Assembly: GCA_964016885.1 (NCBI GenBank)
Contig: OZ024744.1
Span: 84,072,001 to 84,136,000, forward strand
DNA length: 64,000 nt
Source: Eledone cirrhosa
Taxonomy: Eukaryota
Reading direction: 5' to 3'
Shown: piece by piece, positions 1 to 63,752 of the stretch
Layout of the letters: each line of letters begins with the position of its first letter
Numbering within the stretch: position 1 is the first letter of the stretch
Position numbers and translations under genes: made by a program
The notes under the pieces: model-generated
Database searches by the model: none
Told to the model about the DNA's origin: nothing
Seen by the model: only the letters and a program-made list of their open reading frames with translations

Positions 1-2785
1 CGTATCGGGTCATCCAGCTCTTATCTAGATAGACTATTTTGTAGGGAAATAGATAATTCCAGCATAAACTGTCCACAATACAAAATAGTAGACTACATGG
101 ATCATAAATTCGTGATCTGTTGACTTAGATAGGCTTCATAGACAGGAACCCGGCTACTGGAAGCTAAACGCGTCATTAACAGCGCGCAAAACCTACAGAG
201 ACCGGATTAGCGAACTGGTTAAGCGGGTGTTGACGGGGTCCATCGTCAACAACAAATGGTGGTTTGCTCTGAAAAGAGCGATTAGAATAGAGTCCATTAG
301 GTTTAGTAAAGTTTTAGCAATAGAGAAAAATAGAGCAGAGGGAGAATTAGTTAGAAAATTAGATGAGGCGCTTAGTAAATGTATCGCGATGGACGTACTT
401 GCGGCGAAATTGGCCCTTGACGAATTCTTCAATGCAAAGCACGAAGGCTGCGTTGTCAGAGCTAAGGTGCGTGCTCTCACACAAGGGGACGAAAGCCGTT
501 TAATGGGCCCGAGTGGCGGAGGCCCATCGTTTCAACAAAGCCACGATCCGGTCTTTGGTGGACTACGACGGGCGCATGCTACTCGATCCCGGGCAAATAT
601 GTGAAGCTATTCAGCGACACTTCACACAGCTGTACGGGGGCATCGGCGGGCCGGCCCGAGTGATGGACATTAGTGCCTACCTCGACGGACTGCCGCGGCT
701 CTCAGCCACTGAGGCAGATTGTTGCGAAAAGCCGATAACAGCCGCTGAAGTACGGGAAGCAATGACTGGCTGCACAAAGGGTAAATCGTCTGGTTTGGAT
801 GGTCTGCCCTACGAACTTTACGTACACATGCCAGACTTGTTCGAAGGCCTCTTGGCGGACGTCTACTGCAACTGGCAAACGAACGGGAGAATTCCCAGCT
901 CTGTGAGCCGAGGAGCGGTGGCCCAGCTGAGAAAGGACCGGAACAAGAAGGATAATAGATAAGTTCAGGTCCATAACTCTGCTAAATACAGAGTTCAAGA
1001 TTTTGGCCAAGGTGCTAGCAAAGGGGTTGGCGCTTGTCGTTGGTGGTCTGGTGGGTGAGGCGCAGACATGCGCCATTCCCGACAGATCCATCCACGACAA
1101 CTTCCACCTCATGCGATACATCGTGGAGAGGGTAGCGAGGGACCCTGGCACGGATGGGTCCTTGATCAATTTAGATCAGTCGAAAGCTTTCGATAGGGTT
1201 GACCATCGTTATCTGGTGGCAGTCCTGAGGGCAGCTGGCTTTGGGTTCGTCTTCAGAGGCTGGATGCACAGCGACATTTGCTCTGTGGTGAGAGTTAACG
1301 GTCACCTTTCGGAACCGTTCAACATCATGCGCTCGGTCCGCCAAGGATGTCCCCTCTCGTCACTCTTGTACGTATTGACTCTCGAGCTATTACTGCACAA
1401 ACTGGAGACGTTGAGGGGCGTCCCGCGCGAACTAGGATGCAGAAGATCCGTGTCAGCATATGCGGACGATGTCACCGTAGTGGTGTCGAACGCCAAACAC
1501 ATTGAGGTGATCAGCACTACACTAAGAGAATACGAAGCGGTGACCAGGAAAAATCGGGCGGCCTGCATCTTGGCACCTGGGGAGGCAGGTCCATGCCGTT
1601 CAACAGCGTCGTCGGGCGCTGGACGGAGGGACTGGTTAAATTGCTAGGTGTCTGGTTCGGTCCGGACCTCCAGACGGACAAAAACTGGGACGAAGTGACG
1701 AGCAGGGTGGCTTCTCTCACCCAGAAATGGGCAAAGAGGAAGCTTACCCTGAAAGGTAGAGTGGAGGTTGCGAATGCGTACATCGCGTCCGTCATCTACT
1801 ATCGCCTGACCATCGTGCCTTGTCCTAAGCCTCCCCTGACTGCGCTGGAGCGTTTGATCTTTCGATTTTTGTCGAAGGGACGCGCTCCGATGGTCAATGC
1901 GGTCCATCTGCTATCAACACCCGCTACGGGAGGGCTGGCCATGCGTGGCTGATGATACGCAGACACGCGCTCAGGCTTCGGTATCTGCACCTCTTCCTCG
2001 ACGGTGATCAGGTGCAGTCGCTGTTTGCTAGACGCGTCTATCCCCAGCTAGTCTCCTTGACAGAGCTGCAGTCCTGGGTCAAGCGAAGACCGAGAGGGAG
2101 CGCTTGGAGACTGGAATGTCTTCAGGCGCTCACAGCCCTCGATCAGTCGGTCAATGTGATCAGTGGAAACTCCACCTTTGCGTTCTATATAGGATTGTGG
2201 AGGGGAAGAGCGGCGACGTACTTGGGGAAACTCTAGGCGTCGACGAAAATCAACCAGCCAATCTCTTCGGAAGAACTTTCGGGCCGGAGCCGATGGACAA
2301 CTTCCAGAAATCCCTGGCTTGGCAGAGCTACCGAGGAGCTTTGCCAGTTCGGGATGAAGTCTACAGGCATGGAAGTGCCGTCAGCCGGGCATGTCCGACA
2401 GTCGCGCAGGGCGACGAAACCGTACTGCATGCACTCGTCTAGTGTGCGAGCATTGCTGTCTTGTGGGTTTATGTCGAACACCTGCTGTCGCGTGTAGGAC
2501 GGATCCGGCTATCAGCTGAGTCCATCTGAGTATGTGCCTGTAAATTGAAGGTGGAAAACTGGGAGAGGGTCGTTGCTCTGATGGTCAGTGTCACCGTGGC
2601 TTTATTAATGGGCTTTCTCCACGAATGTCCCTCGGATGTCTTCCCCCTATTGGGGAATTTTTTATTGTTTTTTTTTGTTACATCTTCTGTTTTTGTTTTT
2701 TACACGTAGACATGCCCATTTGTAACGTCCTGTATTGTCCTTAACGTCTTACTTTGTGTAAACCCTTGTGGTTAATAAAGAAAGC
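1..2785 (+). mobile_element. Tx1/L1-clade LINE, family A, degenerate; 5' part lies outside the window
   Basis: Frameshifted ORF2 pieces contain LDQSKAFD, RQGCPLS and YADD. Colinear with 47920-51021. Ends in AATAAAGAAAGC followed by (ATT)n. Internal deletion at about 2527. Confidence 0.95.
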
Positions 2786-3539
2786 ATTATTATTATTATT
2801 ATTATTATCTTCGTTATCTTCTTCTTCTCTTTCGTTATCTTCTTCTTCTGGAGTTAGTATAGGCTGAGTATTTGGAGCCTATTTCAGCGAAAATCTGAAA
2901 GCGCCACAGAAACAATTCAGCATAAATGACATTGTAGTTTGTGTAATCGATATATATAGACCACACCTCTTCCCATAGACTGAAAGCTCTTCCACCTTTA
3001 GATAGTCATTACTTTATTACTCTACACCAAATGTTCTCAACCCATTTTGACCAAATGCCCCCTTTTGCCCCTCGAAATCACGAAACCTATTTTTCCATTG
3101 TTCAATATACTACTGATTTTGATACCAGTAGATTACTGGGCCAAATCAAGTTATCTTAGATTCTTTAAAAAATACTCGTAGACATTAAATACAAAAAAGT
3201 TTCAGTCCAAAACAAAAGCAAGCTATTTCAAATTATATATTTTTGAATTAAAAAAAAATATTTGATCTCAGTCGAAAAAGCTTTTTTTTTTTTAAATTCT
3301 ACATTTTACTGTGAGCTGTTGTAATATTTTGAGTGGATAGACAATTGAAACTGCAAAGTCAACATACAAAAGATGCAAAATATGAAGAATTTCTTACCTT
3401 TCTCTGAAATCACAAACTCAGGGGAAAAATAGTAACTTGCAAAATAATATACCTCGTAGCAAAATAAGTAGTAAGGAATGAATTGAGAAGCTTCGTCACT
3501 GAGAAAGCAATATTTTTATCCCTTATATATAAACATAGA

Positions 3540-4082: not shown

Positions 4083-5844
4083 ATGGCCGAAGCACCTACT
4101 TCTTTGCCAAAACAATAAGATGGGAAGGGAAGGCATGCCCACTTGACCAGCAGGTAGTAGCAGACATGAACAAAGAAAAGCCAACTTCATCGCCTCAACA
4201 TCTAGCTGCTGGCAAACAACTGAACACGCCTGACGTCACAAACGTCACAAGTATCCACACACCAAACGAGAAAGACAACAACAACAAAAATGAAAACAAC
4301 ACAAACGACGAAAAACAAAACAATACAAACACCAACAACGAAAACAAAATATCTTTTGCACAAACGGCTAAATTATCAATCACATATGTGCTTGAAGATA
4401 TTTCAAAAGCCAAAGGAATGCTGGAAAAAGCCAAAAAATATGTATCTTTTGGCGAAAACGGTTCTTTTTCTATAAATTCGCCTCCAGAACTAAAAAAACA
4501 GACGGAATTACGAACTGTCGTATTCCGTACAATTTCAAATAAGACAAAAAAAACAGCACAACCATCTCAAGCTGAAATTCAGTTAGTACTGAAAGAAGCG
4601 ATGAAAGATATCACTTTCATACAAAAGGATAAACTCTATGGGAGTTTATCCATATTGATGAAAGACGAATTGGCGGCGAAAAAATACTCTGTGTCGCCAA
4701 TTCGTTCCACACACTACACCTTCCCCACCTACATGGGTAAAAAAATCCCAGAGAATATGGATAACCACCATCACCCCAAACATAAACTACTGGTGGTTAC
4801 TAACCGGTTTCCTCAATTTAGACGAGGACAACCTCATATCAATAGGGAAGGCACCCGGCGACGCGTTCAGTGGAACGAGTATCGAAGTTCTAACACAAAT
4901 AAGGCCAGAACGTATCGCCCAAATCCCTGAGCGCGTCATGCTGGATGACCGTACCCACCTCAACATTATTGTGGAGGGTAGGCGTCCCTCCTGTTACCTC
5001 TGTGGCAATAGAGGTCACCTGAGGGCTGCCTGTCCCCAGCTCACACAGAAAAAAACACTGCTACCAACACCAACACCACCCCAACAACAACAACAAAAAC
5101 AACCATAACAACAACAACAACAAAAACCAACAACACCACCACCACAACAACAACAACAACAAACACGTGAAAAAACAACACAGAATACTGTCCCACCCAA
5201 CCCCTCCCCACTCAAAACAAATACAAAAACACACACACCGCAAAAACTACCAGAAAACATACCCTTCCCCCCCAACAAGGAAGACGAACCCCTTTCGTCG
5301 CAAGACGAAAAAGATCCCTTCCAAACAGTAAAAAGAAAGAAGAGGAGGCGCACCACAGACACACTTGTTAACATTAATCCTCCCCAAGAGAACACAAACT
5401 ATATACAAACCACCCCTCCCCGTCACACAACACTAACTGCTACACAAAAAAAAGACCTTACAATATACAAACATGAACACAGACAACAAAGAACTACTGA
5501 AAACAATTTCATCAAACCCTTCGTTCCAAACTGAAGGGCCTAACTTTATAACTGCTGTGGGACTACCTCCTTTAAAAATGATTAAAGTCCCAATGAACTT
5601 TTATAAAACATTGAAAATAAATTTCACGGAGGACGTGTCCCCCACCCCCCTGCGCCAAGCCAATCAACCGCGTCCTCCAAAAAATTTCACCCGTCCCCAC
5701 CCAGACACCCACTCAACCACAAACGCCCCAACCCCACAACACACTGATGCCCCTTTACTTCCACAAACCACCACCCCATCCAACAACCCATCCCCAACCA
5801 GCATGGAAATTGAGCGGCCCGTTTCCCGGGACGCAGAGAGGTAA
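4083..5844 (+). pseudogene. Tx1 family B ORF1 (zinc-knuckle nucleic-acid-binding protein), frameshifted
   Basis: ORF pieces 4166-4930 and 5473-5844. CCHC knuckle RPSCYLCGNRGHLRAACP at about 4980-5035. N/T/P/Q low-complexity tracts. Homologous layout to 45325-47306. Confidence 0.8.
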
Positions 5845-5868
5845 GTGCCTTTTCTCCTTACCACCAAC

Positions 5869-8800
5869 ATGGCTGTGCTAAGAGTAGGGTGTCTAAATGC
5901 GCGTGGCCTGAGCTCATCTTGGAAGCAAGTAATGCTTCTAAATGACCTCAGGTCATGATCTATAAATGTGATGGTTATCTGCGAGGCCCGGATCAGCAGC
6001 ATACGACAGCTAGCCCCCACCTTTGACGACTTTGAGATGCACGCATCTCTCTGTCAGCCCGGAGGTGGGGGTGGGGTTGTCGTTCTGCTGCAAAAACATC
6101 TGGGTCTTGCCACACATATAGTCCACTTGGACCCAGGGGGTCGACTGGTGGTGCTGGACCTTGGCAGTGGAGAAGGTGGAGCCTTTAGGCTGGTAGCCGC
6201 ATATGCCCCTTTTGGGACGGAGCGGCCCGACTTTTTCCAGCGTCTGGAGTCTTTTCTAGGGACGTCCCGTTCCCTGCTTTTAGTGGGGGACTGGAATGGT
6301 ATCCTGGATGCACGTTGGGACTATGCAGGAGCATGTCCCGATAGAGAGGGGTGCAACAGCCTCAAGGGGTTACTCGGCCGATTTCACCTGGCCGATAGAT
6401 TTCGACTAGATTTTCCGACGGTGCCAACCTGGTCTTGGTCAAATCGCAGCGGATCATCTAGGTCGTACCTAGATAGGTTTTTAGTTAGAAATAAGGACAG
6501 GGACTTTTTAAGTTGTCCAGAAATGCGCATGGTTGGCTATTCAGACCACAAGTTGGTGACCTGCATGGTCAACCTTGATAGAACGCATAGACAGGGCCCC
6601 GGTTACTGGAAGCTCAACTTGTCCTTGCCGGCAAGTAGAGCTTACAGGGATCGGATTAGTACGTTAGTTAAGGAACGGTTGACTGGAGCGATCGTCAACA
6701 GCAGGTGGTGGGTATCTCTAAAGAGAGAGATTAGAGTAGTCTCGATAGAATTTAGTAAGGTTCTAGCTGCGGATAGGAATAGGAAGGAAAGGGAGTTAAT
6801 AGATAGAGTAGAAGAGGCAATTAGAAGCAGCGACGTGGCCAGAGTGCTAGCGTCGAGAAAGGCTTTGAGCCAGTTTTTCGACGCGAAGCACGAAGGCTGC
6901 GTTGTCCGAAGTAAAATACGTGCTCTAGGGAACGAGGGGACCAAAGCTGTTAGCTGGGCCCACGTGACAGAGGCCAAGAGTGAAACTAAATCCACCATCC
7001 GGTCTTTGCGAGACCAGGATGGACGGGCGATCCTTGAGCCTAAGCAAATGTGTGAGGCCTTTCAAAGGCACTTTGCCCGACTGTTCGGAAGGGGCGGGGA
7101 GCCGGTTGGGGATGTGGACTTCGGTCCATACCTCGACGGCCTGCCGTGTCTCTCGGACGGGGAGGCGAAGTCCTGCGAGGAGCCGATTTCGGCCGCTGAG
7201 ATAGAGGACGTACTGAGCCAATGCGGCAAACGCAAATCGCCTGGTCTCGATCGTCTTCCATACGAACTATATCTAGCTATGCCGGACTTGTTCCCCGATC
7301 TCCTCGAGGCGGTCTACTGCAACTGGAAACAGAACGGGAGAATTCCCTGTACTGTGACCAAGGGCGTAGTCACGCTAGTGAGGAAGAACGAGAACAAGGG
7401 GGACGAAATAAGTTACTTCAGGTCCATAATTCTGCTAAATACAGAGTTACAGATTTTGGCCAAGGTGCTAGCAAAGAGGTTGGCGCTTATCGTGGGGAAC
7501 CTGGTGGGAGATGCGCAGACATGTGCTATCCCGTCCAGGTCCATCCTTGACAACCTCCACCTCATGCGATACATCATAGAGAGGATTAGGAACGAACCCG
7601 TCTTTGGTGGGGCTCTGATCAACTTGGATCAATCTAAGGCGTTCGATAGGGTCGACCATGGTTACCTGGATGCGGTGCTAGCGGCGGCAGACTTCGGACC
7701 CGTTTTTAGGGGCTGGATCACTGCTATGCACAGCAGCCGCATCTGCTCTAGGGTCAAGGTGAACGGCTACCTCTCGGAGCCGTTCAAAATCGCGCGGTCC
7801 ATCCGACAAGGGTGCCCTCTCTCCTCCCTTCTGTATGTGTTGACTCGAGCCACTACTGCGGAAGTTGGAGTTGTTGCAGGGCATCCCTTTGGAACCGGTA
7901 TTGCGGAAAGCGGTGTCGGCCTACGCCGATGACGTGACAGTAATGGTGTCGACGGTCTCCGAAATCGGGGCGATCGGCACCTTACTGGAGGAGTACGAAA
8001 GGTTCACAGGGGCTAAGCTGAACCGGGACAAGTCGATCGGTTTGCAACTCGGAACGTTGAGGGGCAAACCGATGCCCTCCGATGGCGTCGTCGGATGCTG
8101 GAGGGAGGGCCCGGTGAAGTTCCTCGGGGTCTGGTTCGGACCAGACCTCCAGGTGGAGAAGAACTGGGCGGAGGTTACGAACAGGGTGTTTGCACTGACC
8201 CAGAAGTGGGCCAGTTGCAAACTATCCCTGAAAGGTCGGGCGGAGGTGGCGAACACCTATATAGCGTCCATCATCTACTATCGCCTGACCGTCGTGCCTT
8301 GCCCAAGGGAAACCCTCGCCAAGATGGAGCGCGCGCTCTTCCAATTCCTTTGGAAGAGGCGGGCTCCCTTGGTGAGGAGATCCATCTGCTATCAACACTC
8401 TTCGAAAGGAGAGCTGGGGATGCCGTGGCTAATGATGCGTAAAAACGCATTAAGGCTACGGCACCTCCAGGTATTCCTCACCGGTCAACCGGTGTGGGCC
8501 TCGTTTGTGAGACGAACCTTTCCCAGACTCGACTCACTCACCGAGCTGCAATCTTGGGTTAAGCAAAGACCGAGAAAACTGGGCGCCTGGCACACTGAGT
8601 GTGCCTAGGCGCTCACCGTCCTCTGGCAGGCGGATCCGGTTATCAGTGGAGACTCCACCGCAACATTCTATAGAGGGCTGGTACGCAGCAGGTGCGACGA
8701 CGCCCTCGGAGAAGCCCTAGACATGGAGGAAGACGAACTGGCCAGCCTGTTCGGTAGGACATTCAGCCCGGGATCTATGGACAACTTCCAGAAGTCCCTG

Positions 8801-9304
8801 GCCTGGCAGTGCTACCGAGGGGCTCTACCCGTTCGAGAAAAGCTCTACAGACACGGTCGCCCGGGTAGGGACCCCGCCAAAAAGATCTGTCCCAGATGCG
8901 TGTGCGACGAGGAAACCGTTGCACACGCATTGGTACACTGCTCGGGCGTAGCCGATCTGTGGGGCTATGTCGAACAACTGCTGTCAAGGGTGGGACCGAT
9001 CCGGTTGACCTCCGAGTCTATTGTAATGATCAAGCCGGCTCCCCCCTTCAAAAATGAAGGAGAGACGGTGTTTCTGTGCGTAATAGCCATGGTGAAAGAG
9101 GTTGCATGGTGGACGCGTCTGAAAGTACTGAGGTCAGGCACCTTTCTCTCTGGCCAACAACTGGTCCGTTTCTTCCGATATCATTTCGGAAGAAGGATCA
9201 GGATGCAAAGAGAGCTGCTCCACCCCAGTCGTTTTTATGAAAGGTGGGTGAAAGTGGCGAGAATGGCCCGTGTGAATGGGCCTTCTCTTTACATAAGCCT
9301 GTAG
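5869..9304 (+). pseudogene. Tx1 family B ORF2: APE endonuclease, reverse transcriptase and C-terminal CCHC, with stops and frameshifts
   Basis: NARGL, GDWN, YLDR and SDH (APE); LDQSKAFD, RQGCPLS and YADD (RT); CPRC..ETVAHALVHC. ORF pieces 5968-7932, 7865-8608 and 8723-9304. Confidence 0.93.
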
Positions 9305-9655
9305 GTGGAAAAGAGGAAGGAACGCTCCTGAGGAGAAGGGTTGCACACTTTTTTCGGGGGTGTGTGCGACCCCCCAAGGCGCCTCCTCTCTATTGAGGAT
9401 TTTGTTATAAATTTTATTTTGTTATATTTTATTTTATTTTTATATTTTGTTATTGCCTCCTCCTTATTGAGGACGCTTTTTTGTGTAAACTCCCCCCATT
9501 GTACTTGTCCCACTTTTGATGCCCTGGTGGCAAATAAAAGAAACATATCTATCTATTTATCTCCAACGGGGTGCTCACACATGCGGTCCGCGAACTACTT
9601 ATCTGTGGCCCGTGGTAGAACCAATATTTCATATCGCATTATAACTGATGAAAAT

Positions 9656-25150: not shown

Positions 25151-25260
25151 CGTTTCTTTTTAGTTCCCGCGCCACATTGTGGGGAGGGGCGAAATAAATA
25201 GACCACTGATACAGATATTTGTTTTAAGTTCAACTATCAAATTACTCAAATATCTAGCCT

Positions 25261-25647
25261 CAAGAAATGTTCATATTTTCGCAGAAATACCTTTGTCATT
25301 TTCTCCGCGGGGCGCAGACGAAACACCGCTCTGACTTAGATGTAATCACTCTCTCCACTGCCCACTTTCTTTCTTTCTTTCGTTACCTAATACTTATTGC
25401 TCTAAAATTACATAAAGATAATAATTTTTTTCATATTTAGTTAAACTTATAGAAAAAGAAAGTAATATTGGAAAGGAGTATAAATACTATAAAATGAGAG
25501 AAAAGAGAGAGGAAGGGCAACGAAAGAAAGAAAGAAAGTGGGCATGGAGAGAGTGACAGATTCTACATCTAAATCAGAACGGTATTTCGTCTGCGCCCTG
25601 CGGACAAAATGGTAAATGCATTTCCACGAAAATATGAACATTTCTTG
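25261..25647. mobile_element. MITE-like inverted repeat with roughly 125-bp diverged arms
   Basis: caagaaatgttcatattttcg...ctttcgtt (25261-25384) versus aacgaaag...cgaaaatatgaacatttcttg (25519-25647). Confidence 0.65.
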
Positions 25648-25674
25648 TGTCTAAAATTCCGTCTCTCTCTATCT

Positions 25675-37696: not shown

Positions 37697-38514
<818 letters not shown>

Positions 38515-44873: not shown

Positions 44874-44905
44874 AATATTATTATTATTATTATTATTATT
44901 ATTAT

Positions 44906-45092
44906 GGGGAATTTTTCATTGTTTCAATTTTCATTTTTATTGTTTATATATATATATATGTTTCTATGTCCTTTTTTTTTTCTTTCTTATATAAATAATA
45001 AAGATATTTACGTGCACAAAGCCACATCGTACCGTCCTCTGCCGTCTGTAATGTTTTTCTTGATGTCAGCCCTTGTGGCCAATAAAGAAATC
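44906..45092 (+). mobile_element. Short 3'-UTR fragment of a third Tx1-like family
   Basis: ggggaattttt...gtaccgtcct...cccttgtggccAATAAAGAAATC resembles the family A 3' end. (ATT)n on both sides. Confidence 0.65.
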
Positions 45093-45324
45093 ATTATTAT
45101 TATTATTATTATTATTGGCGACCTACGTAGTAAATCGTATCATCGTGAGCTCCGCAAAGGTTTGTTATTTCCGTTTGTTAAAAATTGCCATTTATGGAAA
45201 ATTTTATTGTTAACTGTTTATAAGCACACATACATTGTTTTCCGAAAAGGACACCCAGAAAGATTGGGGCCTTGTGCCCAAAATTTTAACTTTTATTATT
45301 ATCCAAAAATTTCTTTGAAGAAAA

Positions 45325-47306
45325 ATGGCTACTTCACCTCTGCACGAAGCAGCTGAAAGCCTTCCTCACAAAATAACACCTCACACCGACACCACCATTG
45401 TAAATGTTACTACGTTTGCCAACACAAAAAAAAATATAAGCAGTAGCAATATTTTAAATTTGTCTCAGGCAGACATTCATTTCCCGCCATTACCAATGAC
45501 TGCAGGTGTTAAAGCCTCCACCACCACCACCACCGCGACAACCACCACCACCACCACCACCGCGACAACAGAAACAAAAGAAGAAAAAAATAAATTAACT
45601 CGTGATGTCGAAATGAAATCAAGCAAAATGGACTCTTCCCCACCAAAGACGACTGACGTCACCACCACCACAACTGAAACTAAAATTAATATTAACGATA
45701 GCAACAACAACAATGACATTATAAAACCCCCCCTCAGTTTCGCCAGAGTAGCAAAACAATTCGAAGCATTTACGGTAACTCAGGAAGATTTAGAAAATGC
45801 CAAACAAATGGTAAAGAAAGATGGGTACAGGGTCAGCCCCCCCCCCCCACCTAATAAAATGGAGCATCGGCGCCTATGCACCGTGTCGTATAGAACAATA
45901 AATGTAAAATCGCGCCGAGTGGAACGGGCATCCGAGTCCCAAATCCAAAAAGCTTTGGGACATGTGTGGGCAAGAAAAACCCACATCAGACGTGGGCAAA
46001 AGTATGGAACCGTGGACGTGTTCTTTGAAACACCAGAGGAGGCTAGAGAACACTCCATGGCCCCATTAAAAAGTGACGACTTCACACTCGTCCCAAGCTA
46101 TTGTGGCCAGAGACTCGTAAAGATCAGGGTGACCCACGTTCCACCGGCCATCGAAATTCCCTGGCTAATAGCGGCCGTCCTCGCCGGCATCGAAGCCAAC
46201 ACGAAAATAATAGCAATAGCAAAAGAAAAGCAGGAAAACTGGTCCGGATCTGGGATGGAGCTCCTGATCCAAGCGGACCAAAAAAGCATTGAGGAGATCC
46301 CAGAGGTAATAGACCTCACTGACGGCAGCCACCTCACGGTAATTGTCGAGGGCAGAAGACCTAGGTGTGTCGTTTGTGGTGAAGGAACCCACCTAAGGGC
46401 TTTCTGCCCTCAGGCTAAAAGGTTGAGGCCACCTCTCCTACCCACCCCAGTGACACAACCATCAACACCACCAGTAGCAGAGATGGCAGCAACAACTGTA
46501 GCAGCAACAACAGAAGCAACTATAACAGCAACAACTCCAGCAACAGTAGCAAAACCAACACCACCACCACCACCAGCAAAACCAACACCACCACCACCCA
46601 ACGCTTCAGAACTAGCACCAGCGCCTACACCATCCCCCACGCCACAACCAAAACTAACGGCTGTGGAGGATTTTCCACTCCCCGGCCTATCACAACTGGA
46701 GACAGATTGTGACGACGAGGAGTGGGAAACGATATCCGGAAAAAAAAAAGAAACCAAAAAAGAAAAAATTCTCTTCCTTCCCCCTCCAAAAAAAAATTAC
46801 AGAGGGAAACAAATAAATTAAGAAACAAAAAAGTTAGGACAGATATGCCACCATCCACACCAGCATCACCAACCCCATCAACCCAAACACCAACACCATC
46901 ACTATCATTAACCCCAACACCACCATCACCTACACCACAAAAGTCACCAAAATGCGAAACAGAAACAAACCCACAACAAACGCAAACAAAACAAAACAAC
47001 CAAAACGATACACACTACACAGCATTAAATTTGAACAACAAGCAATTATTACACTACATCCAACACAACACCAGCATCACAGAAAAAGACTACACAACAA
47101 CCCCAAAATTCACACCACCTCCACACATACAAATCACTCGCATCACACAGAAAACGTACATGACACTAAAACAAAAATTCCCAAAAGACATCGGAGACTT
47201 CCGACAAGCACTCTCCAGGAGGATTTATAAGGACATCCTTCCTGAGGAGGCCACAAGCAGTGAAAACGATGGAAAAACCGTCCTTTCTCTACGAGAAGTA
47301 AGGTAA
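45325..47306 (+). CDS. Tx1 family A ORF1 (zinc-knuckle protein), one frameshift in the A-run at about 46740
   Basis: ORFs 45325-46821 and 46722-47306; RPRCVVCGEGTHLRAFCP. The copy at 53874-54518 reads through this site. Confidence 0.85.
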
Positions 47307-47340
47307 GTGGTCTTTACCATCTTTTCCATTCCTTTTCAAC

Positions 47341-50300
47341 ATGACCTCACTCAGAATAGGCAGCATAAATGCGCGTGGCTTGGGGTCATCATGGAAGCAG
47401 GGCCACCTGCTCAACGACCTCAGGTCACTAAACATAGATGTAGTGGCCATCAGCGAGACCAGAATCTCGGAAGCACAGGCTTTCGCACCGATCTTCGGCG
47501 GCTCCGATGTGTACGCATCTCCCAGCAGTCCGGGATCGGGGGGAGGAGTTCCTGTGCTTTTTCGGAGAGGTTTGGATCTTGCCATACGGGCCATCTTCCT
47601 GGACCCAGAAGGTAAGTTGGTGGTGCTGGACGTGACCAGCGGAGACGGGCAAGCTTTCAGGTTAGTGGCCGTCTATGCCCCGACAGGAGCAGGGCGGCCT
47701 GATTTCTTCGGGCGTCTGGAGACCTTTCTTGGAACGTCCCGCTCTTTAGTGTTAGTGGGCGACTGGAACGGGATCTTAGATGCACGCTGGGATTGTGTGG
47801 GATTAGTGGATAGGGAAGGAGGGTGCAAGAGTCTCACCAACCTGCTCAGACGTTTTGAACTGTCTGCCAGGTACCGAATGGATTTCCCGAATGTACCAAT
47901 GTGGACTTGGACAAATCGCATAGGGTCATCCAGATCATATCTAGATAGAGTATTTTGTAGGGAAATAGATAGGTCTAGCATAGGCTGTCCACAATTCAAG
48001 ATAGTCAGCTACACGGACCACAAATTCGTGATCTGTGTGCTTGACTTAGATAGGCTTCATAGACAAGGACCCGGCTACTGGAAGCTAAACGCGTCCTTAC
48101 CAGCGCGCAAGGCCTACAGAGACCGGATTAGCGAACTAGTTAAGCGGGCGTTGACGAGGGCCATCGTCAACAACAAGTGGTGGCTTGCTCTGAAAAGAGC
48201 GATTAGAATAGAATCCATTAGGTTTAGTAAGGCTTTAGCAATAGAGAAAAATAGAGCAGAAGGAGAACTAGTTAGAAAATTAGACGAGGCGCTTAGCAAA
48301 GGCATCGCGACCGACGTACTTGCGGTGAAATTGGCCCTTGACCAATTCTTCAATGCAAAGCACGAAGGCTGCGTTGTCAGAGCTAGGGTGCGTGCTCTCA
48401 GACACGAGGGGCCGAGTGCCGTTCTATGGGCCCGAGTGGCGGAGGCGCGTCGTGGCAACAAAGCCACGATCCGGTCTTTGGTGGACCACGACGGGCGCAT
48501 GTTACTCGATCCCGGGCAAATGTGTGAAGCTTTTCAGCGACACTTCGCTCAACTGTTCGGGGGCAGTGGCGGGCCGGATCGAGGGATGGACTTTAGTGTC
48601 TACCTCGACGGACTGCCGCGGCTCTCGGCCACAGAGGCGGAGTGTTGCGAAAAGCCGATAACAGCCGCTGAAGTACGGGAGGCAATGACTGGCTGCACAA
48701 GGGGTAAATCGCCTGGTTTGGATGGTCTGCCCTATGAACTTTACGTACAAATGCCAGACTTGTTCGGAGGCCTCTTGGCGGACGTCTACTGCAACTGGCA
48801 ACAGAACGGTAGAATTCCCAGCTCTGTGAGCCCTGGAGCGGTGGCGCTGCTGAGAAAGGATCCGAACAAGGGGGATAACATAGATAATTTCAGGCCCATA
48901 ACTCTGCTACACACAGAGTTCAATACTTTGGCCAAGGTGCTAGCAAAGAGGTTGGCGCTTGTCGTTGGTGGTCTGGTGGGAGAGGCGCAGACATGCGCCA
49001 TTCCCGACAGATCCATCCACGACGACATCCACCTCATGCGATACATCGTAGAGAGGGTAGCTAGGGAACCTGGCACGGGTGGGTCTTTGATAAATTTAGA
49101 TCACTCGAAAGCCTTCGATAGGGTCGACCATCGTTACCTGCGGCCGTCCTGAGGGCGGCTGGCTTTGGGCCCATGTTCAGAGTCTGGATCGCTGCCATGC
49201 ACAGCGACATCTGCTCTGTGGAGAGAGTGAACGGTCACCTTTTGGAACCGTTCAACATCATGCGCTCGGTCCGCCAAGGATGTCCCCTCTCGTCTCTATT
49301 GTACGTATTGACTCTCGAGCCATTACTGCACAAACTGGAGACGTTGAGGAGGGTCCCGCGCGAACTAGGATGCGGAAGATCCGTGTCAGCATATGCGGAC
49401 GATGTCACCGTAGTGGTGTCGAACGCCAAACATATCGAGGCGATCTGCACTACACTAAGAGAATACGAAGCGGTGACAGGAGCAATGATCAACCAGGAAA
49501 AGTCAGTGGGCCTACAGCTCGGCACCTGGAGAGGCAGGTCCATGCCGTCCAACAGCGTCGTCGGGCGCTGGACGGACGGACCGGTTAAATTGTTAGGGGT
49601 CTGGTTCGGTCCAGACCTCCAGACGGACAAAAACTGGGACGAGGTGACGAGCAGGGTGGCTTCTCTCACCCAGAAATGGGCCGAGAGGAAGCTATCCCTG
49701 AAAGGTCGAGCGGAGGTGGCTAACGCGTACATCGCGTCCGTCATCTACTACCGCCTGACCGTCGTACCTTGTCCTAAGCCCCGCCTGACTGCGCTGGAGC
49801 GTTTGCTCTTTCGCTTCTTGTGGAAGGGACGCGCTCCGATGGTCAGGCGGTCCATTTGCTCTCAACACCCGCTACGTGGAGGGCTGGGCATGCCGTGGCT
49901 GATGATGCGCAGACACGCGCTCAGGCTACGACATCTCCACCTTTTCCTCGACGCTGATCAGGTGTGGTCGCCGTTTGCTAGACACGTTTTTCCCCAGCTC
50001 GTCTCCTTGACGGAGCTGCAGTCCTGGGTCAAGCGAAGACCGAGAGGGAGCGCTTGGAGACTGGAATGTCTTCAGGCGCTCACAGCCCTCGACCAATCGG
50101 GCAATGTGATCGGTGGAAACTCCACCTTGGCGTTCTATGGGAGATTAGTGGAGGGGATGAGCGACGACGTACTTGGAGAAACTCTAGGCGTCGACGAAAA
50201 TCAACTAGCGAATCTCTTCGGAAGGACTTTCGGGCCAGGGCCTATGGACAACTTCCAGAAATCCCTGGCCTGGCAGTGCTACCGGGGAGCTTTGCCAGTT

Positions 50301-50759
50301 CGGGATAAACTCTACAGGCATGGAGGTGCCGTCAGTCGGGCATGTCCTAGATGCGCGCAGGGCGACGAAACCGTCCTGCACGCACTCGTCCAGTGTCCGA
50401 GCATTGCTGACTTGTGGGTTTATGTCGAACACCTGCTGTCGCGTGTAGGACGGATCCAGCTATCAGCTCAGTCCATCGTGAGGATTGCCCCACCCTCTTC
50501 CTTTAGCCGGGAAGGGCAGGCAGTTTTTATCTGTCTGGTGGCCATGGCGAAAGAGAAAGTATGGTGGACACGTTTGAAAGGGCTGAAGACGAGCACTTAC
50601 CTCTTCGGTGATGCTCTGATTGACTTTTTCAAATTTCATTTGAAAAGGAAAATCAGAGTAGAGAGGGAAGTGCTCTCTTCCCAGCATTTTGTTGAAAGAT
50701 GGGTGAGAGAAGCAAGAATGGCCCGAGTGAATGGGCCGACTCTGAGTATATATCTGTAA
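47341..50759 (+). CDS. Tx1 family A ORF2 (APE endonuclease, RT, CCHC), one frameshift at about 49140
   Basis: ORFs 47341-49152 and 49173-50759. INARGL, ISET, GDWN, YLDR, TDH; KAFDRVDH, RQGCPLS, YADD; CPRC...HALVQC. Confidence 0.93.
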
Positions 50760-51019
50760 ACTAAAGGTGGAAAACTGGGAGAGGGCACTTGCCTTGGTGG
50801 TCAGGGTCATTGTGGCTTTTTACTGGGCTTTCTCCACAAATGTCCCTCCGAAGTCTCCCCCCTATTGGGGAATTTTTCATTGTTATTTTCATTGTTATTT
50901 TTGTTACATCCTCTGTTTTTGTCTTTTTACACGCAGAAATGCCCATTTGTACCGTCCTGCATTGTCCTGCACTGTCCTTAATGTCTACTTTATGTAAACC
51001 CTTGTGGTTAATAAAGAAA

Positions 51020-51072
<53 letters not shown>

Positions 51073-52265
51073 GAATGCTATGGTTGAGGGAGGCTCGGCT
51101 CTGTAAGGTATTGTAAATTTTGAACGCTATAATAATTGTAAATTGTTTAAAACTTTTACCAACTTGTAGACAAAAACACCCTCCTACGATATCTCCACCT
51201 CTTCCTCGACGGTGATCAGGTGTGGTCGCCGTTTGCTAGACACGTATTTCCCCAGCTCGTTTCCTTGACGGAGCTGCAGTCCTGGGTCAAGCGAAGACCG
51301 AGAGGGAGCGCCTGGAGACTGGAATGTTTTCAGGCGCTCACAGCCCTCGACCAATCGGGCAATGTGATCGGTGGAAACTCCACCTCAGCGTTCTATAGAG
51401 GATTAGTGTAGGGGAAGAGCGACGACGTACTTGGGGAAAATCTAGGCGTCGACGAAAATCAACTAGCCAATCTCTTCGGAAGAACTTTCGGGCCAGGACC
51501 TATGGACAACTTCCAGAAATCTCTGGCCTGGCAGTGATACCGAGGAGCCTTGCCAGTTCGGGATAAACTCTACAGGCATGGAGGTGCCGTCAGCCGGGCA
51601 TGTCCGAGATGCGCGCAGGGCGACGAAACCGTCCTGCACGCACTCGTCCAGTGTCCGAAAATTGCTGACTTGTGGGTTTATGTCGAACACCTGCTGTCGC
51701 GTTTAGGACGGATCCGGCTATCATCTGAGTCCATCGTGAGGATTGCACCGCCCTCCTCCTTTAGCCGGGAAGGGCAGGCAGTTTTTATCTGTCTGGTGGC
51801 CATGGCGAAAGTGATAGTATGGTGGACACGTTTGAAAGGGCTGAAGACGAGCACTTACCTCTTCGGTGATGCTCTGATTGACTTTTTCAAATTTCATTTG
51901 AAAAGGAAAATCAGAGTAGAGAGGGAAGTGCTCTCTTCCCAGCATTTTGTTAAAAGATGGGTGAGAGAAGCAAGAATGGCCCGAGTGAATGGGCCTACTC
52001 TGAGTATATATCTGTAAATTAAAGGTAGAAAACTGGGAGAGGGCACTTGCCTTGGTGGTCAGGGTCATTGTGGCCTTTTACTGGGCTGTCTCCACAAATG
52101 TCCCTCCGAAGTCTCCACCCTATTTGGGAATTATTCATTGTTATTTTTTGTTACATCCTCTGTTTTTGTTTTTTACACGCAGAAATGCCCATTTGTACCG
52201 TCCTGTATTGTCCTGCACTGTCCTTAATGTCTACTTTATGTAAACCCTTGTGGTTAATAAAGAAA

Positions 52266-52267
<2 letters not shown>
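51073..52267 (+). mobile_element. Tx1 family A 3' portion (51184-52267) fused to a foreign 110-bp 5' segment
   Basis: From 51184 it is colinear with 49926-51021. 51073-51183 has no match in the family A 5' UTR. Confidence 0.9.
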
Positions 52268-52303
<36 letters not shown>

Positions 52304-55300
52304 GGCGACCTACGTAGTAAATCGTATCATCGTGAGCTCCGCAAAGGTTTGTTATTTCCGTTTGTTAAAAATTGCCATTTATGGAAAATTTTATTGTTAA
52401 CTGTTTATAAGCACACATACATTGTTTTCCGAAAAGGACACCCAAAAAAATTGGGGCCTTGTGCCCAAAATTTTAACTTTTATTATTATCAAAAAATTTC
52501 TTTGAAAAAAAATGGCTACTTCACCTCTGCAACAAGCAGCTGAAAGCCTTCCTCACAAATTAACACCTCACACCGACACCACCATTGTAAATGTTACTAC
52601 GTTTGCCAACACAAAAAAAAAATATAAGCAGTAGCAATATTTTAAATTTGACTCAGGCAGACATTAATTTCCCGCCATTACCAATGACTGCAGGTGTTAA
52701 AGCCTCCACCACCACCACCACCGCGACAACCACCACCCCCACCACCACCGCGACAACAGAAACAAAAGAAGAAAAAAATAAATTAACTCGTGATGTCGAA
52801 ATGAAATCAAGCAAAATGGACTCTTCCGCACCAAAGACGAATGACGTCACCACCACCACAACTGAAACAAAAATTAAGATTAACACAAATAACGATAGCA
52901 ACAACAACAACAATGACATTATAAAACCGACCCTCAGTTTCGCCATCGTAGCAAAACACTTCGAAGCGTTCACGGTAACTCAAGAAGATTTAGAAAATGC
53001 CAAACAAATGGTAAAGAAAGATGGGTACAGGGTCAGCCTCATCCCCCCCCCCCCCCCCCACCTAATAAAATGGAGCATCGGCGCCTATGCACCGTGTCGT
53101 ATAGAACAATAAATGTAAAATCGCGCCGAGTGGAACGGGCATCCGAGTCCCAAATCCAAAAAGCTTTGGGACAATGTGTGGGCAAGAAAAACCCACATCA
53201 GACGTGGGCAAAAGTATGGAACCGTGGACGTGTTCTTTGAAACACCAGAGGAGGCTAGAGAACACTCCATGGCCCCATTAAAAAGTGACGACCTCACACT
53301 CGTCGCAAGCTATTGTGGCCAGAGACTCGTAAAGATCAGGGTGACCCACGTTCCACCGGCCATCGAAATTCCCTGGCTAATAGCGGCTGTCCTCGCCGGC
53401 ATCGAAGCCAACACGAAAATAATAGCAGTAGCAAAAGAAAAGCAGGAAAACTGGTCCGGATCTGGGATGGAGCTCCTGATCCAAGCGGACCAAAAAAGCA
53501 TTGAGGAGATCCCAGAGGTAATAGACCTCACTGACGGCAGCCACCTCACGGTAATTGTCGAGGGCAGAAGACCTAGGTGTGTCGTTTGTGGTGAAGGAAC
53601 CCACCTAAGGGCTTTCTGCCCTCAGGCTAAAAGGTTGAGGCCACCTCTCCTACCCACCCCAGTGACACAACCATCAACACCACCAGTAGCAGAGATGGCA
53701 GCAACAACTGTAGCAGCAACAACAGAAGCAACTATAACAGCAACAACCCCAGCAACAGTAGCAAACCAACACCACTACCACCACCAGCAAAACCAACACC
53801 ACCACCTCCCAACGCTTCAGAACTAGCACCAGCGCCTACACCATCCACCACACCACAACCAAAACTAACGGCTGTGGAGGATTTTCCACTCCCCGGCCTA
53901 TCACAACTGGAGACAGATTGTGACGATGAAGAGTGGGAAACGATATCCGGAAAAAAAAAAAGAAACCAAAAAAGAAAAAATTCTCTTCCTTCTCCCTCCA
54001 AAAACAAAATACAGAGGGAAACAAATAAACTAAGAAACAAAAAAGTTAGGACAGATATGCCACCATCCACACCAGCATCACCAACCCCATCAACCCAAAC
54101 ACCAACACCATCACCATCATTAACTCCAACACCACCATCACCTACACCACAAAAGTCACCAAACTGCGAAACAGAAACAAACCCACAACAAACGCAAACA
54201 AAACAAAACAACCAAAACGATACACACTACACAGCATTAAATTTGAACAACAAGCAATTATTACACTACATCCAACACAACACCAGCATCACAGAAAAAG
54301 ACTACACAACAACCCCAAAATTCACACCACCTCCACACATACAAATCACTCGCATCACACAGAAAACGTACATGACACTAAAACAAAAATTCCCCAAAGA
54401 CATCGGAGACTTCCGACAAGCACTCTCCAGGAGGATTTATAAAGACATCCTTCCTGAGGAGGCCACAAGCAGTGAAAAGGATGGAAAAGCCGTCCTTCCC
54501 CTACGAGAAGTAAGGTAAGTGGTCTTTCCCATCTTTTCCACTCCTTTTCAACAAGACCTCACTCAGAATAGGCAGCATAAATGCGCGTGGCTTGGGGTCG
54601 TCATGGAAGCTGGGCCACCTGCTCAACGACCTCAGGTCACTAAACATAGATGTAGTGGCCATCAGCGAGACCAGAATTTCCGAAGCACAGGCTTTCGCAC
54701 CGATCTTCGGCGGCTACGATGTGTACGCATCTCCCAGCCGTCCGGGATCGGGGGGAGGAGTTGCTGTGCTTTTTCGGAGAGGTTTGGATCTTGCCATACG
54801 GGCCATCTTCCTGGACCCAGAAGGTAAGTTGGTGGTGCTGGACGTGACCAGCGGAGACGGGCAAGCTTTCAGGTTAGTGGCCGTCTATGCCCCGACAGGA
54901 GCAGGGCGGCCTGATTTCTTCGGGCGTCTGGAGACCTTTCTTGGAACGTCCCGCTCTTTAGTGTTAGTGGGCGACTGGAACGGGATCTTAGATGCACGCT
55001 GGGATTGTGTGGGATTAGTGGATAGAGAAGGAGGGTGCAAGTGTCCCACCAACCTGCTCAGACGTTTTGAACTGTCTGACAGCTACCGAATGGATTTCCC
55101 GAATGTACTAATGTGGACTTGGACAAATCGCATAGGGTCATCCAGATCATATCTAGATAGAGTATTTTGTAGGGAAATAGATAGGTCTAGCATAGGCTGT
55201 CCACAATTCAAGATAGTCAGCTACACGGACCACAAATTCGTGATCAGTGTGCTTGACTTAGATAGGCTTCATAGACGAGGACCCGGCTACTGGAAGCTAA

Positions 55301-55454
55301 ACGCATCCATACAAATATTGGGGAATTTTTCTTTGTTATTTTATTTCAACCTCTGTTTTTTTTCACGCAGAAATGCCCATTTGTACCGTCCTGTATTGTC
55401 CTGTACTGTCCTTAATGTCTACTTTATGTGAACCCTTGTGGTTAATAAAGAAAA

Positions 55455-55455
<1 letters not shown>
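52304..55455 (+). mobile_element. Tx1 family A copy with about 2.8 kb deleted internally (RT lost)
   Basis: Colinear with 45117-48096, then jumps at about 55308/55316 to the 3' UTR (equivalent to about 50863). Confidence 0.93.
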
Positions 55456-55488
<33 letters not shown>

Positions 55489-55489
<1 letters not shown>

Positions 55490-58400
55490 TTTGAGTTTCA
55501 GTCATTGATGTTAGTTAACTGGAAACTTTGTTGCAATGAATATCAAGCCACTACCTGCAGCGTCAGATATTCAGGACGTATCGGAGGGTTATTGCTGTTC
55601 CCAGCAAGCATGCCTTTTGAAGCGTTCCAAAAAGCGTGAAGGGGCCAATTTTCTTTAACCATCCCTGGAAACTTTTGAGATAGTCCCTATTGCGCCTATG
55701 ACAATCTTTGACTTCATGGCAGTTCCAAATCCTTTTTACCTCCCACTTTAAGTCCTGGTATCGGTTAATTTTCTCCCTCTCCTTCTCTTGCACTCTCGTG
55801 TCGAATGGGCAGGCCACATCCACAATCACGCACGATCTTTTTTTTTGTCCACAACCACCAGGTCAGGTCTATTGTGTTCCAGTTTCTTGTCCGTCTGTAT
55901 CCTAAAATCCCACAGCACCTTCACCTGATCGTTCTCTATCACCGACTCTGGCTTATGCTCATACCACTTCTCAGAATGTGGTAAATTGTTTACTTTGCAT
56001 AGGTGCCAGTGGATCACCCTGCCCATCACATCATGTCTCCAGCCCTTATAGTGAGTCTGGGCTAGGTGTTTACACTCGGATACAATGTGAGCCCCAGTCT
56101 CCTCTCTCTCTCCACAGATCCTGAACAGTGGGCTAGCCTCCCCCTTGTAAATATGGTGTTTCAACCACTTCGTTTTGAGGGCCTGCTCCTGCGCAGCCAT
56201 TAACATTCCTTCTGTAGCCTTTTTAAGATCTCCTCTTTTCAACCAGTTCCATGTCTGTGGATCTCTGAATTCAGTTTTCTCAAAGAAGGTACTATGAAGG
56301 GATTTTTCCTGAAGGCTGCTCTTTCGCCATGATGTTATTTCCTCCTTGGACATCCCCTGGTCTATTGTCCCCTCCTTCAGTACAGTTATGAGCATTGGCT
56401 CCTTACTATCAGTCACGTATTTGTGAAGTTTTTTTTTCTCCATCTGAACACAGTCCTCTATGCTGATAAGACCTCTTCCACCTTCAGATCTCCTTAAGTA
56501 GAGTCTATCGACATCACTCCTCTTGTGGAGCATGTTGTAGATAGTCAATAGCTTCCCAGTCTTCCTATCCATTTCTTTTTGTTCAGCAACATTCCATCTC
56601 AGAATTCCTGCACTGTACCTAATAATAGACACAGCTCGGGAATTTACTGCACTTATGGCATTCCTACTGTTCAGATGTGACTTTAATACGCTCCTTACTC
56701 TCCGAATGTATTCAGTTCTTATCAATTCCTTCATTTTTTTTTGTTCTTGATGTCATCAGCGTCCAGAACACCCAAATACTTGTATCCTTCTTCAGAGTCA
56801 ATTTCCTTTATCATCTCACCTGTTGGTACCTGCATTCCGTTACTTCTGCTCAATTTACCCCTCTTCATCACAAGGACTCCACACTTACTAATACCAAATT
56901 GCATACATATATCGTTGCTGAAAATACGGACAGTGTCAACAAGCACATCCAACTCCTTCTCACTCTTCCCGAAGAGCTTAAGATCGTCCATGAAGAGGAG
57001 GTGATTGATGGTAAGCCCTCCCTTTCCCAACCTGTATCCTGCTCTCACTTTTCGCAGTACACTGGTCAGGGGCATCAGGGCAAGGACAAACAATAGAGAG
57101 GACAGACTATCTCCCTGGAAGATGCCTCTCTTGATCTTCACGCTTCCCAAGGATTCTCCAGTTGATGTTAACTCTGTTTCCCAGGACTTCATATTTTTGC
57201 CCAACAACTGTCTGATCTTATCTGCCACCTTGAAGATCTCCAGGCTTTTGGTAATCCAAGAATTAGGCACCATGTCAAATGCCTTTTTGTAGTCTCTCCA
57301 TCCCATGGCAAGACCAATATGTCTCCTCTTGCAATTCCTCATTACCATCTTATCAATAAGTAACTGGTCCTTTGTACCACGTGACCTCTTTCGGCATCCT
57401 TTCTGTTCGTCCGGTAACAAGTTGTTTGTGTGGAGGTAATGGTAGATTTCCTCAGACATAATTCTTGTCAACCGTTTCCACATTACGGACAGACATGTGA
57501 TAGGTCTATAGTTGGTAACATCATTACCCTTGATTCAGTCTTTCATTACCAGAACTGTGGTACCTTTTGTCAACCACTCTGGTGCCTCACCTGACATCAA
57601 GCAGTCATTGAACATGGTTGTCAGTTTCGGGTGGAGGGATGTTATATTTTTAATCCAATACCCCTGCACACCATCTGGGCCTGGTGATTTCCAGTTGGTT
57701 AGATTTTTGGCCTGCCCCTTAAGAGTTTCGACTGTGATACTCAAATCAGTTTGTTGGTGTGCCTGTTCACAAATCTCCTTATGTACTGTCTCAATCCACA
57801 CTGCCTGGTCATTATGTTTAACATACTGCTCCCATATTCCTCTCCAGAATGCTTTAGTTTGTTCCGCCTCAGGGATCAAGTCGTTGCCTCTTTCTTTCCC
57901 TTCAAGCTGTCCAAACAGCATCTTCTGGTTGTTGTCAAACATGCGGTTCTGTCTATACTGACTGACTCTGTTCTCGTATCGCCTGATTTTTGCACTCTTT
58001 GCTACAATGCGTGGCTTCAGTTCCTCTATGATAATATTTAGCTTTTTCCTCCTAGTTTTGTACTCTATTTCCAGTTTATTTTTAGTGTCTATTTTTTTAA
58101 TGTCCCATTCAGTAGGAACTCAAGCTTTCCAATGTCATTTCTCATTTCCCTGATTTGACCACTCAGTCGTTTCTTCCACCAAGGCTCTGATCTTTCTTGT
58201 TTGTTGTTTCCTCTCGCTTTTATACCAAGTAGTTTCCTCACCGTATTTGCTGTTGCTTTGAGGATATTGTTGCACTGGTGAAGGCTCCTCGCCTCAAGGT
58301 ATGGGATGACTTTGTTTACCTTAGCTGTTGTTTCTTTTAACTTTTGCCTGTCTACGAATCTTAGGTTCATAGGTATCCCTCTATCATTGTTCATTTCATC

Positions 58401-63400: not shown

Positions 63401-63752
63401 CCTTGGGGTTACATTTCAGGTAACATTGCATTACAGTTCTATTCAATTCTTTCGTCCAGTTGGTTCTGGCCCCTTTCCTTCTTCTCCTTCCTCCAACATC
63501 AGCAGTATTTGGTTGACAGTCAGGTTCCTGCTGCTGAGCCAGGGGGCACCTGTTGGGTGAGAGTCTGTCACATGACGTTCTAGTCTCCATTTCACCGTTA
63601 TTCGAACTGTTTATGTTCGATATTTAAACACTCTTATCGAGGATTGGCGAATGTATGGTTACATATCCATCTGTGGATCCACCATTCCACTTGGCCCTTG
63701 TGTGGCATTATCACCACGCTGTATACGAACACACATAAACAAACAAACACAC
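60497..63752 (-). mobile_element. R4/Dong-type RLE LINE, copy D3, with two internal deletions and a short 5' end
   Basis: Homologous to D2. ORFs 62175-63590, 61382-61888 and 60571-61146. (TAA)n flanks. Confidence 0.93.

Follow-up and report, generated by a model that had tools for sequence, protein, structure and literature searches.

Does an animal LINE splice out its own ORF2 from part of its RNA, and would this set the ratio of its two proteins? LINEs need far more ORF1p than ORF2p, and I know of no test, in most LINE clades, of how the ORF1p:ORF2p ratio is set. The question is raised by LINE copies in Eledone cirrhosa, in a stretch of 64,000 nucleotides of contig OZ024744.1 (positions 84,072,001 to 84,136,000), which is called the window here. 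An earlier note on this DNA had proposed that one splice donor at the end of ORF1 serves two acceptors, giving either an ORF1-only mRNA or an ORF1-ORF2 fusion. I analysed the donor, the acceptors and their surroundings in the window and in related LINEs.

The LINE copies and their relatives

As listed in Table 1, the + strand of the window holds several LINE copies, A1 to A4 of family A and one copy each of families B and C. The family A ORF2 has the Pfam domains Exo_endo_phos, RVT_1 and zf-RVT, and its best sequence match in the PDB is the L1 ORF2p (E 4e-24); in copy A2 its frame is broken near 49122-49152. An ORF2 with APE, RT and zinc finger, a separate upstream ORF1, a simple-repeat tail and 5′-truncated copies place family A in the L1/Tx1 group. 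Relatives of the family A ORF1 were not found by word-based protein searches; 150 matches came from HMMER, and the named homologues are from Octopus sinensis, O. bimaculoides, O. vulgaris and Argonauta hians. An (ATT)n tract adjoins all five 3′ ends of families A and C and precedes both intact 5′ ends, in this one window, where tail and target are indistinguishable. In copy A4, an internal deletion brings the endonuclease domain next to the 3′ UTR near 55312-55316, and its ends are not splice sites. No usable 3′ UTR was obtained from the fragment at 14411-15269.

In a scan of prokaryotic assemblies, LINE arrays of animal type were found on contigs assigned to two bacterial MAGs, G001 and G002; their ORF2 is about 40% identical to the ORF2 here. 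The LINE DNA lies on G001 contigs C3-C19 (L063-L106) and on G002:C16. In G001, intact units of 6.4-6.9 kb stand head to tail, mostly with one subfamily per contig, and such arrays are possibly telomeric or site-specific. Two sister families were distinguished among the relatives, M1 and M2 (L103, L106). In a quick RT tree, a single branch (SH-aLRT 100) holds A, B, M1, M2 and P0157; the tree does not place P0165, the single Tx1-named row. Pfam zf-CCHC matches the ORF1 of M1, not that of family A. No LINE relatives were found in viral contigs.

Two further points concern rearrangement. The loop of the small hairpin that precedes GGGGAATTTTTC contains both the 5′ end of copy C (44903) and the deletion end of copy A4 (55316), and it may be a hot spot of RT stalling or of microhomology with (ATT)n. 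In contigs X5 and X4, a subfamily has the family A ORF2 and donor with a different ORF1 upstream of about 47268, and this change looks like ORF1 swapping directly before the donor.

Table 1. Positions of the LINE copies and of the features discussed, numbered from the first letter of the window.
Feature	Position	Strand	Remark
Copy A1, 3′ end	2651..2808	+	5′ part missing; TAG 2707-2709
Family B element	about 3870-9546	+	about 70% DNA identity to family A
Family B donor D1 (5841) with ORF1 stop, spacer and ORF2 ATG (5869)	5838..5871	+	
Family B ORF2 stop TAG (9302-9304), zipper arm and 3′ UTR	9280..9545	+	no YAG after the T tract
Family C 3′ end	44903..45116	+	shared motif and T tract; no YAG downstream of the tract
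Copy A2, full-length family A LINE of L1/Tx1 type	45117..51021	+	flanked by (ATT)n tracts
Copy A2 ORF1	45325..47306	+	frame broken in an A-rich stretch near 46740-46820; homologues in octopods
CX2CX4HX4C knuckle in copy A2 ORF1	46366-46407	+	
Zipper 5′ arm (donor, pyrimidine spacer, ORF2 ATG), predicted	47299..47350	+	
Donor D1, AAG/GTAAGT	47300..47309	+	intron start 47303; holds the ORF1 stop TAA 47304-47306
Copy A2 ORF2 (APE endonuclease, RT, zinc finger)	47341..50759	+	own ATG 47341; stop 50757-50759
In-frame AG for a fusion splice (52-nt intron)	47353..47354	+	part of the Arg codon where the endonuclease begins; unsupported as acceptor
Zipper 3′ arm, predicted	50742..50797	+	50786-50793 pairs with the donor core
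Small hairpin and GGGGAATTTTTC motif	50856..50884	+	common to family C and the sister lineage; inside the proposed intron
U-rich tract within an 83-nt AG-free stretch	50873..50933	+	B and C: tract kept, no YAG after it
Candidate 3′ splice site CAG	50934..50936	+	
Predicted terminal exon of copy A2	50937..51021	+	in-frame stop 50995-50997; AATAAA 51010-51015
(ATT)n tail and target tract after copy A2	51022..51072	+	
Copy A3, 3′ end, 5′-truncated	52122..52303	+	CAG 52180-52182
Copy A4, internally deleted	52304..55489	+	D1 at 54515; CAG 55368-55370

The donor at the end of ORF1

In both family A and family B, ORF1 closes with AG/G-TAA-GT, so written to mark the stop codon within the donor motif, despite unrelated ORF1 ends. 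The motif, called D1, is also present in copy A4 and in the relatives L063-L105 and L108. In M1, AG/GTAAGT follows ORF1 at 75 of 76 ORF2 starts (overlapping loci counted twice), and the ORF1 stop is located one frame over, directly upstream of the donor. Since M1 reads the donor in another frame, it is the RNA motif rather than a peptide that is conserved at this site. In L108, an older copy, the donor is kept and the stop and spacer are changed. Outside the clade, a relaxed donor motif precedes ORF2 in one of 38 distant loci (40 of the 62 metagenome loci hold an ORF2 start, and two of these were omitted as too near the contig end). As controls, 16 LINEs with an unbroken ORF2 were taken from the same 62 loci (17 qualified, and L047 was omitted as a near copy of L044); D1 is absent from all of them.

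Some features limit what the motif can say. A second perfect donor lies at 47612 inside ORF2, in family A only, so perfect donor motifs can arise by chance. No second donor was found after the ORF2 stop in A and B, where the best candidates match 5-6 of 8 positions. Population variants were inspected as well. The -2 base of D1 changes from A to C in 78% of the X4 depth and 23% of the X2 depth, with the Arg codon retained; no variant in the six intron bases of D1 was present among the 40 listed of 199 variant rows. At the donor core or the CAG, none was present among the 40 listed of 1227 and the 40 listed of 199 rows, which proves nothing. Rfam gave no matches in the window or in L063, L076 and L103, and thus no snRNA or spliced-leader target was recognized. 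As a separate observation, the donor motif may be read in a third frame in the ORF1 homologues P0003 and P0004, whose last residues are Gly-Lys(-Ser). Of the two halves of the proposed pair, D1 is far stronger than the acceptor.

Pairing between the start and the end of ORF2

The splicing model of the earlier note overlooked a long-range pairing that would bury the donor. The sequence around the donor and the ORF2 ATG is complementary to the sequence around the ORF2 stop codon, and the predicted duplex is called the zipper here. In copy A2 (47299-47350/50742-50797), it has -39.3 kcal/mol, a value that 5 of 300 shuffles reach; in family B (5833-5878/9291-9368), one of 300 shuffles is as low. 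The A2 arm was also paired with the UTRs of copies A3 (32/300 shuffles) and A1 (143/300), and by this prediction the zipper is weak or lost in the truncated copies. When about 240 windows along each element were ranked, the zipper pairing came first in all six clade sequences (four families) and in one of the 16 controls. Cross-pairing is strongest within lineages, and the family B arm pairs even better with the family A UTR. In the population, a single zipper pair, at the helix edge (47301, 50794), is variable in both of its bases. In the distant LINE L018 (1876-5700), which is outside the clade, the ORF2 start also pairs best beside the ORF2 stop.

The donor core is fully paired and almost never unpaired in the family A prediction, and only partly paired in B and M1. 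In family B, the pyrimidines before the ORF2 stop pair with the purine-rich ORF2 start. This bears on the earlier description of the family B stop as lying in an acceptor-like context: its TAG is indeed the top YAG after the ORF1 end, but the pyrimidine run is interrupted and pairs in the predicted zipper. The acceptor-like look of family B may be a by-product of zipper pairing.

The candidate acceptor in the 3′ UTR

A T-rich tract followed by YAG was confirmed in four family A 3′ ends (AG at 2708-2709, as TAG, and at 50935-50936, 52181-52182 and 55369-55370, as CAG). Of the common context acgCAG/aaatgccc described before, the YAG is present everywhere, but copy A1 reads acatg after the AG instead of aaatg. 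The joining of 47302 to 50937 is in frame, as had been noted; it would add a 20-residue tail ending at the TAA of 50995-50997, 12 nt before the AATAAA at 51010. The copies at 52.2k and 55.4k encode the 20-residue tail with one change, while an ORF1-end splice to the copy A1 site would meet a stop after five codons. By a plain pyrimidine count rather than a trained model, 50936 ranks first among the 187 YAGs in 45117-51021 (16 of 20 pyrimidines, 83 nt free of AG).

Is this a sign of function? The earlier note had pointed to the C-to-T change that keeps YAG; an argument from conservation fails here, since the four 3′ UTRs are 89-98% identical and two unchanged bases plus one transition are expected without selection. 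No YAG follows the T-rich tract in family B (9370-9545) or C (44903-45116), and the tract itself is kept. In nine X2 contigs the CAG is kept and the bases after it differ (agreement 0.67, weak). The caveat that T-rich 3′ UTRs can mimic acceptors was found to be justified. The top-ranked YAG lies in the 3′ UTR in 6 of the 16 control LINEs, and a YAG within rank 3 does so in 9 of 16 (for the seven controls without AATAAA within 460 nt, up to 300 nt were used). The six mimics have 14-20 pyrimidines of 20, and 50936 is inside that range. Of 117 T-rich tracts in the window, 19 have a YAG within 12 nt.

These counts favour a rival explanation, in which a U-rich 3′ element that serves 3′-end formation or ORF2p recognition gives rise to the YAG at 50936 as a by-product. 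The donor would then be a U1-binding or zipper motif, the zipper would control the translation of ORF2 or the stability of the RNA, and splicing would be rare or absent. The T tract kept without YAG in B and C also fits this rival, and so does the zipper, which is the one trait common to all four clade families and covers the ORF2 start. I consider it a real possibility, close behind the ORF2-skipping reading. In all four clade families, on the other hand, the YAG that ranks first coincides with or follows the ORF2 stop; this holds for 6 of the 16 controls (Fisher p 0.04, with rows that are not independent). Families A and B reach this in opposite ways: family A has no YAG at its ORF2 stop (TAA) and one at 50936, and family B the reverse (TAG stop).

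The sister lineage carries a conserved acceptor of its own. A pyrimidine tract ending in YAG, about 250 nt past the ORF2 stop, is present in 12 of 12 aligned M1-type 3′ UTRs (ten align in register and two are shifted by one or two columns; in five, identity to L063 is only 52-75%), and the bases after the acceptor AG diverge. In L063 and L085, the sense strand of the 6.2-kb unit has G/GTRAGT just twice, at the ORF1 end and 17 nt from the ORF2 stop; this second donor is kept in 11 of the 12 aligned 3′ UTRs. M2 lacks D1 and has its own second donor, a strong 3′-UTR acceptor and a zipper. An intron-like cassette of donor, pyrimidine tract and YAG lies in the 3′ UTR, about 235 nt long in M1 and 145 nt in M2 (L063:9469-9930, L103:5010-5470, L107-L112). 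It is unspliced in every DNA copy seen, and a 3′-UTR intron that survives retrotransposition would be unusual. The UGGGA in the M1 spacer was considered as a reinitiation motif and rejected, for it varies. The by-product explanation leaves the conserved M1 acceptor and the second donor unexplained.

The GGGGAATTTTTC motif is common to A, C and M1 (17/18 and 19/20 matches), and it lies downstream of the M1 acceptor but upstream of 50936. Because the two sites are on opposite sides of the shared motif, 50936 is not the homologue of the M1 acceptor. It would be either a family A replacement acceptor or a mimic. Folding of the 3′ UTRs alone is no better than that of shuffles (z 0.35 and -0.69). 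A TATT-loop hairpin was seen with the stem CCCC/GGGG in A (50856-50871) and CCTC/GAGG twice in B (9387-9399, 9460-9473), a compensatory-looking difference.

Fusion and other acceptors

The second branch of the earlier proposal, the ORF1-ORF2 fusion from the same donor, is not supported. A splice from D1 to the AG at 47353-47354 is very improbable, even though the corresponding join would keep the frame in families A and B alike. It would need introns of 52 and 42 nt, and its AG belongs to an Arg codon where the endonuclease begins. A separate ATG for ORF2 is present in A, B and both relatives, and it is intact in the population, where X2 reads T at 54554 in 337,657 of 337,781 depth units. In M1, the fusion is impossible, since the ORF1 stop is upstream of the donor. 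None of the 150 ORF1 hits has an ORF2 match; seven of them end in Arg, and most are fragments or gene models.

Another alternative is that D1 removes ORF2 by way of a different acceptor, namely the AAG at 50765-50766, the CAG at 50802-50804 or a downstream site in the host or the next copy. In both A and B, AG/GTGGAAAA stands just past the ORF2 stop in the same frame (TAG/GTGG in B), upstream of the shared GGGGAATTTTTC motif as is the sister lineage acceptor. However, the family A site reads AAG, its pyrimidine run is poor, and its location within the zipper arm accounts for its conservation without any splicing. This alternative seems improbable, though less so than the fusion.

Search for the junction and for processed copies

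The spliced joint was searched for in contigs, which show presence and not absence, so that a negative result from them is weak evidence. X1, X4, X5 and X6 were compared over 45125-51020, and X4, X2, X6 and X5 over 54400-55452; X3 was not included. The second region was chosen because the deleted copy A4 has donor and acceptor within 1 kb. The 47302-to-50937 joint was not found among the 15 listed of 1028 joints or the 24 listed of 3187 loose ends. Likewise, the 54514-to-55371 joint was not found among the 15 listed of 86 joints, nor loose ends at 54514 or 55371 among the 20 listed of 548. The joints listed for the copy A4 region reach a depth of 12.8, and diverged single pieces have about 6-25; an amplified processed family would probably have appeared among the joints if, as I guess, the rows were picked by depth.

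The processed ORF1-only copies with the exact junction that the earlier note had called for were found neither in the 62 terminal-exon matches of G001 nor among the contig joints listed. In G001, the acceptor is kept in 61 of the 62 matches, and the remaining one has a point change. A deleted, ORF1-rich form does exist, as one X2 contig joins 54467 to 55373, not at the splice sites. The summed depth of X4 is far higher over the 3′ UTR than over ORF2 and rises upstream of the acceptor; depth cannot rank the parts.

A proposed mechanism

The motifs, the reading frame, their spread in relatives and the complementarity are observed, and from these I infer the following model for family A, at slightly less than even chances: part of the RNA would be spliced from D1 to 50936, skipping ORF2 and giving an ORF1-only mRNA, with the zipper as a brake. 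During transcription, U1 would bind D1. Once position 50797 had been made, about 140 nt ahead of the emergence of the acceptor, the zipper would compete for the donor in a kinetic contest. RNAs in which U1 won would be spliced across a loop shortened to about 150 nt, would use the normal poly(A) site and would yield extra ORF1p with the 20-residue tail. RNAs in which the zipper won would stay at full length and would be used both as template and for the translation of ORF2p from its own ATG. The splice would also remove the shared hairpin and GGGGAATTTTTC, and the loss of this 3′ motif may keep the short RNA from being copied back. The site at 50936 would be the family A replacement for an ancestral acceptor nearer the ORF2 stop.

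How does the ORF1-only branch of the earlier proposal fare? It is helped, though indirectly, by D1, conserved in two frames and kept across A, B and M1, by the sister 3′-UTR acceptor and second donor kept in M1, and by 50936 as the best downstream site, but this site is found in family A alone and is no stronger than mimics. Against ORF2 skipping, M2 has the zipper and the 3′-UTR acceptor without D1, the predicted zipper of family A leaves the donor scarcely accessible, and the stray donor at 47612 and the early stop of copy A1 also speak against it. The by-product explanation has difficulties of its own. Pairing of the donor is only partial in B and M1, so that its sequence is not fixed by the zipper alone. 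The internal A(A/T)TAAA hexamers are all upstream of the donor (six in A2, 45589-47024; two in B, 5581-5616). As none lies inside the ORF2 of A2 or B, there is no canonical poly(A) hexamer there for U1 to mask, and a purely protective role of U1 is weakened. In its favour, the donor of the Arabidopsis element EVD has a documented role that is independent of splicing (PMC5580714). If 50936 is a mimic, the conserved donor and the zipper still call for an explanation. Given the donor, the zipper and the cassette of the sister lineage, the ORF1-only splice is a serious and cheaply testable hypothesis; the site described as its acceptor is real but was over-read.

A broader scheme can be drawn from the sequences, although I regard it as rather unlikely in full. 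An animal LINE clade would be built on the spliceosome, with one 3′-UTR acceptor, alternative donors at the ORF1 end and (in the sister lineage) the ORF2 end, and a co-evolving ORF2 zipper as a switch. Spliced RNAs would be translated and only unspliced ones copied, and the introns would survive in this way. In family A, the second donor would have disappeared and the acceptor would have shifted to 50936.

Comparison with known systems

The closest parallel is the shGAG RNA of EVD, a Ty1/Copia element, as described in PMC5580714. There, the structural gene ends in a strong, conserved donor that is used with a weaker acceptor, as proposed for family A; the splice supplies a stop codon, and the short RNA serves to make excess structural protein, as proposed here. 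EVD differs in that it is an LTR element whose intron spans the protease and whose splicing, coupled to premature termination, has been shown (PMC5580714). In family A, the proposed intron is the entire 3.6-kb ORF2 region, the RNA would end at the normal poly(A) site, and the splice is a prediction. As a LINE without LTR, gag-pol or integrase, family A would at most work like shGAG without being a member of that group. Families A, B and M1 have the conserved U1-type donor at the end of the structural gene; an acceptor conserved across families is seen for the sister-lineage site, not for 50936.

In LINEs, splicing is better known as damage. Human L1 RNA has usable donors and acceptors, its splicing is described as harmful to the element, and spliced forms have been retrotransposed (131 of 6,609 full-length L1PA1-6, about 2%; PMC5860796). 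These SpIREs are spliced in the 5′ UTR or ORF1 and are called dead ends (PMC5860796), whereas the family A sites bracket ORF2 and look selected. HAL1, an ORF1-only derivative of L1, has the form expected of a processed copy of the proposed splice (PMC5753468). It is a DNA family of its own (PMC5753468), while the ORF1-rich forms here (copy A4 and one X2 contig) are not joined at splice sites. Kibi and Koshi, Tx1 elements that target microsatellites, are two-ORF APE-RT LINEs stacked in a simple repeat, as is the case here (PMC4494074). The tract here is (ATT)n, and the available text on Kibi and Koshi mentions no splice signals flanking ORF2 and no long-range pairing (PMC4494074). The Drosophila TART is a non-LTR element with head-to-tail arrays and spliced transcripts, but its introns are in antisense transcripts, unlike those proposed here (PMC1636488). 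L1-Tx1 families have been recently active in O. vulgaris, according to a paper whose main text mentions neither ORF1 nor splicing (PMC13282606). An ORF2-skipping splice or an ORF2 zipper in a LINE was not found in the literature searched; Repbase, subscription journals and supplements may describe these families.

If the model is true, the shGAG strategy of Copia elements arose in non-LTR elements too. Moreover, the 5′-truncated copies would be cassettes of an acceptor and a poly(A) signal, able to trap host transcripts in octopod introns.

Other repeats in the window

The minus strand of the window has another RT-bearing family, with three copies 87-95% alike (41080-43900, 55491-59014 and 60499-63669), one of which is inserted directly behind the tail of copy A4. 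Inverted-repeat elements (MITE-like), some of them nested, are located at 25255-25653, 36328-37183 and 37705-38398.
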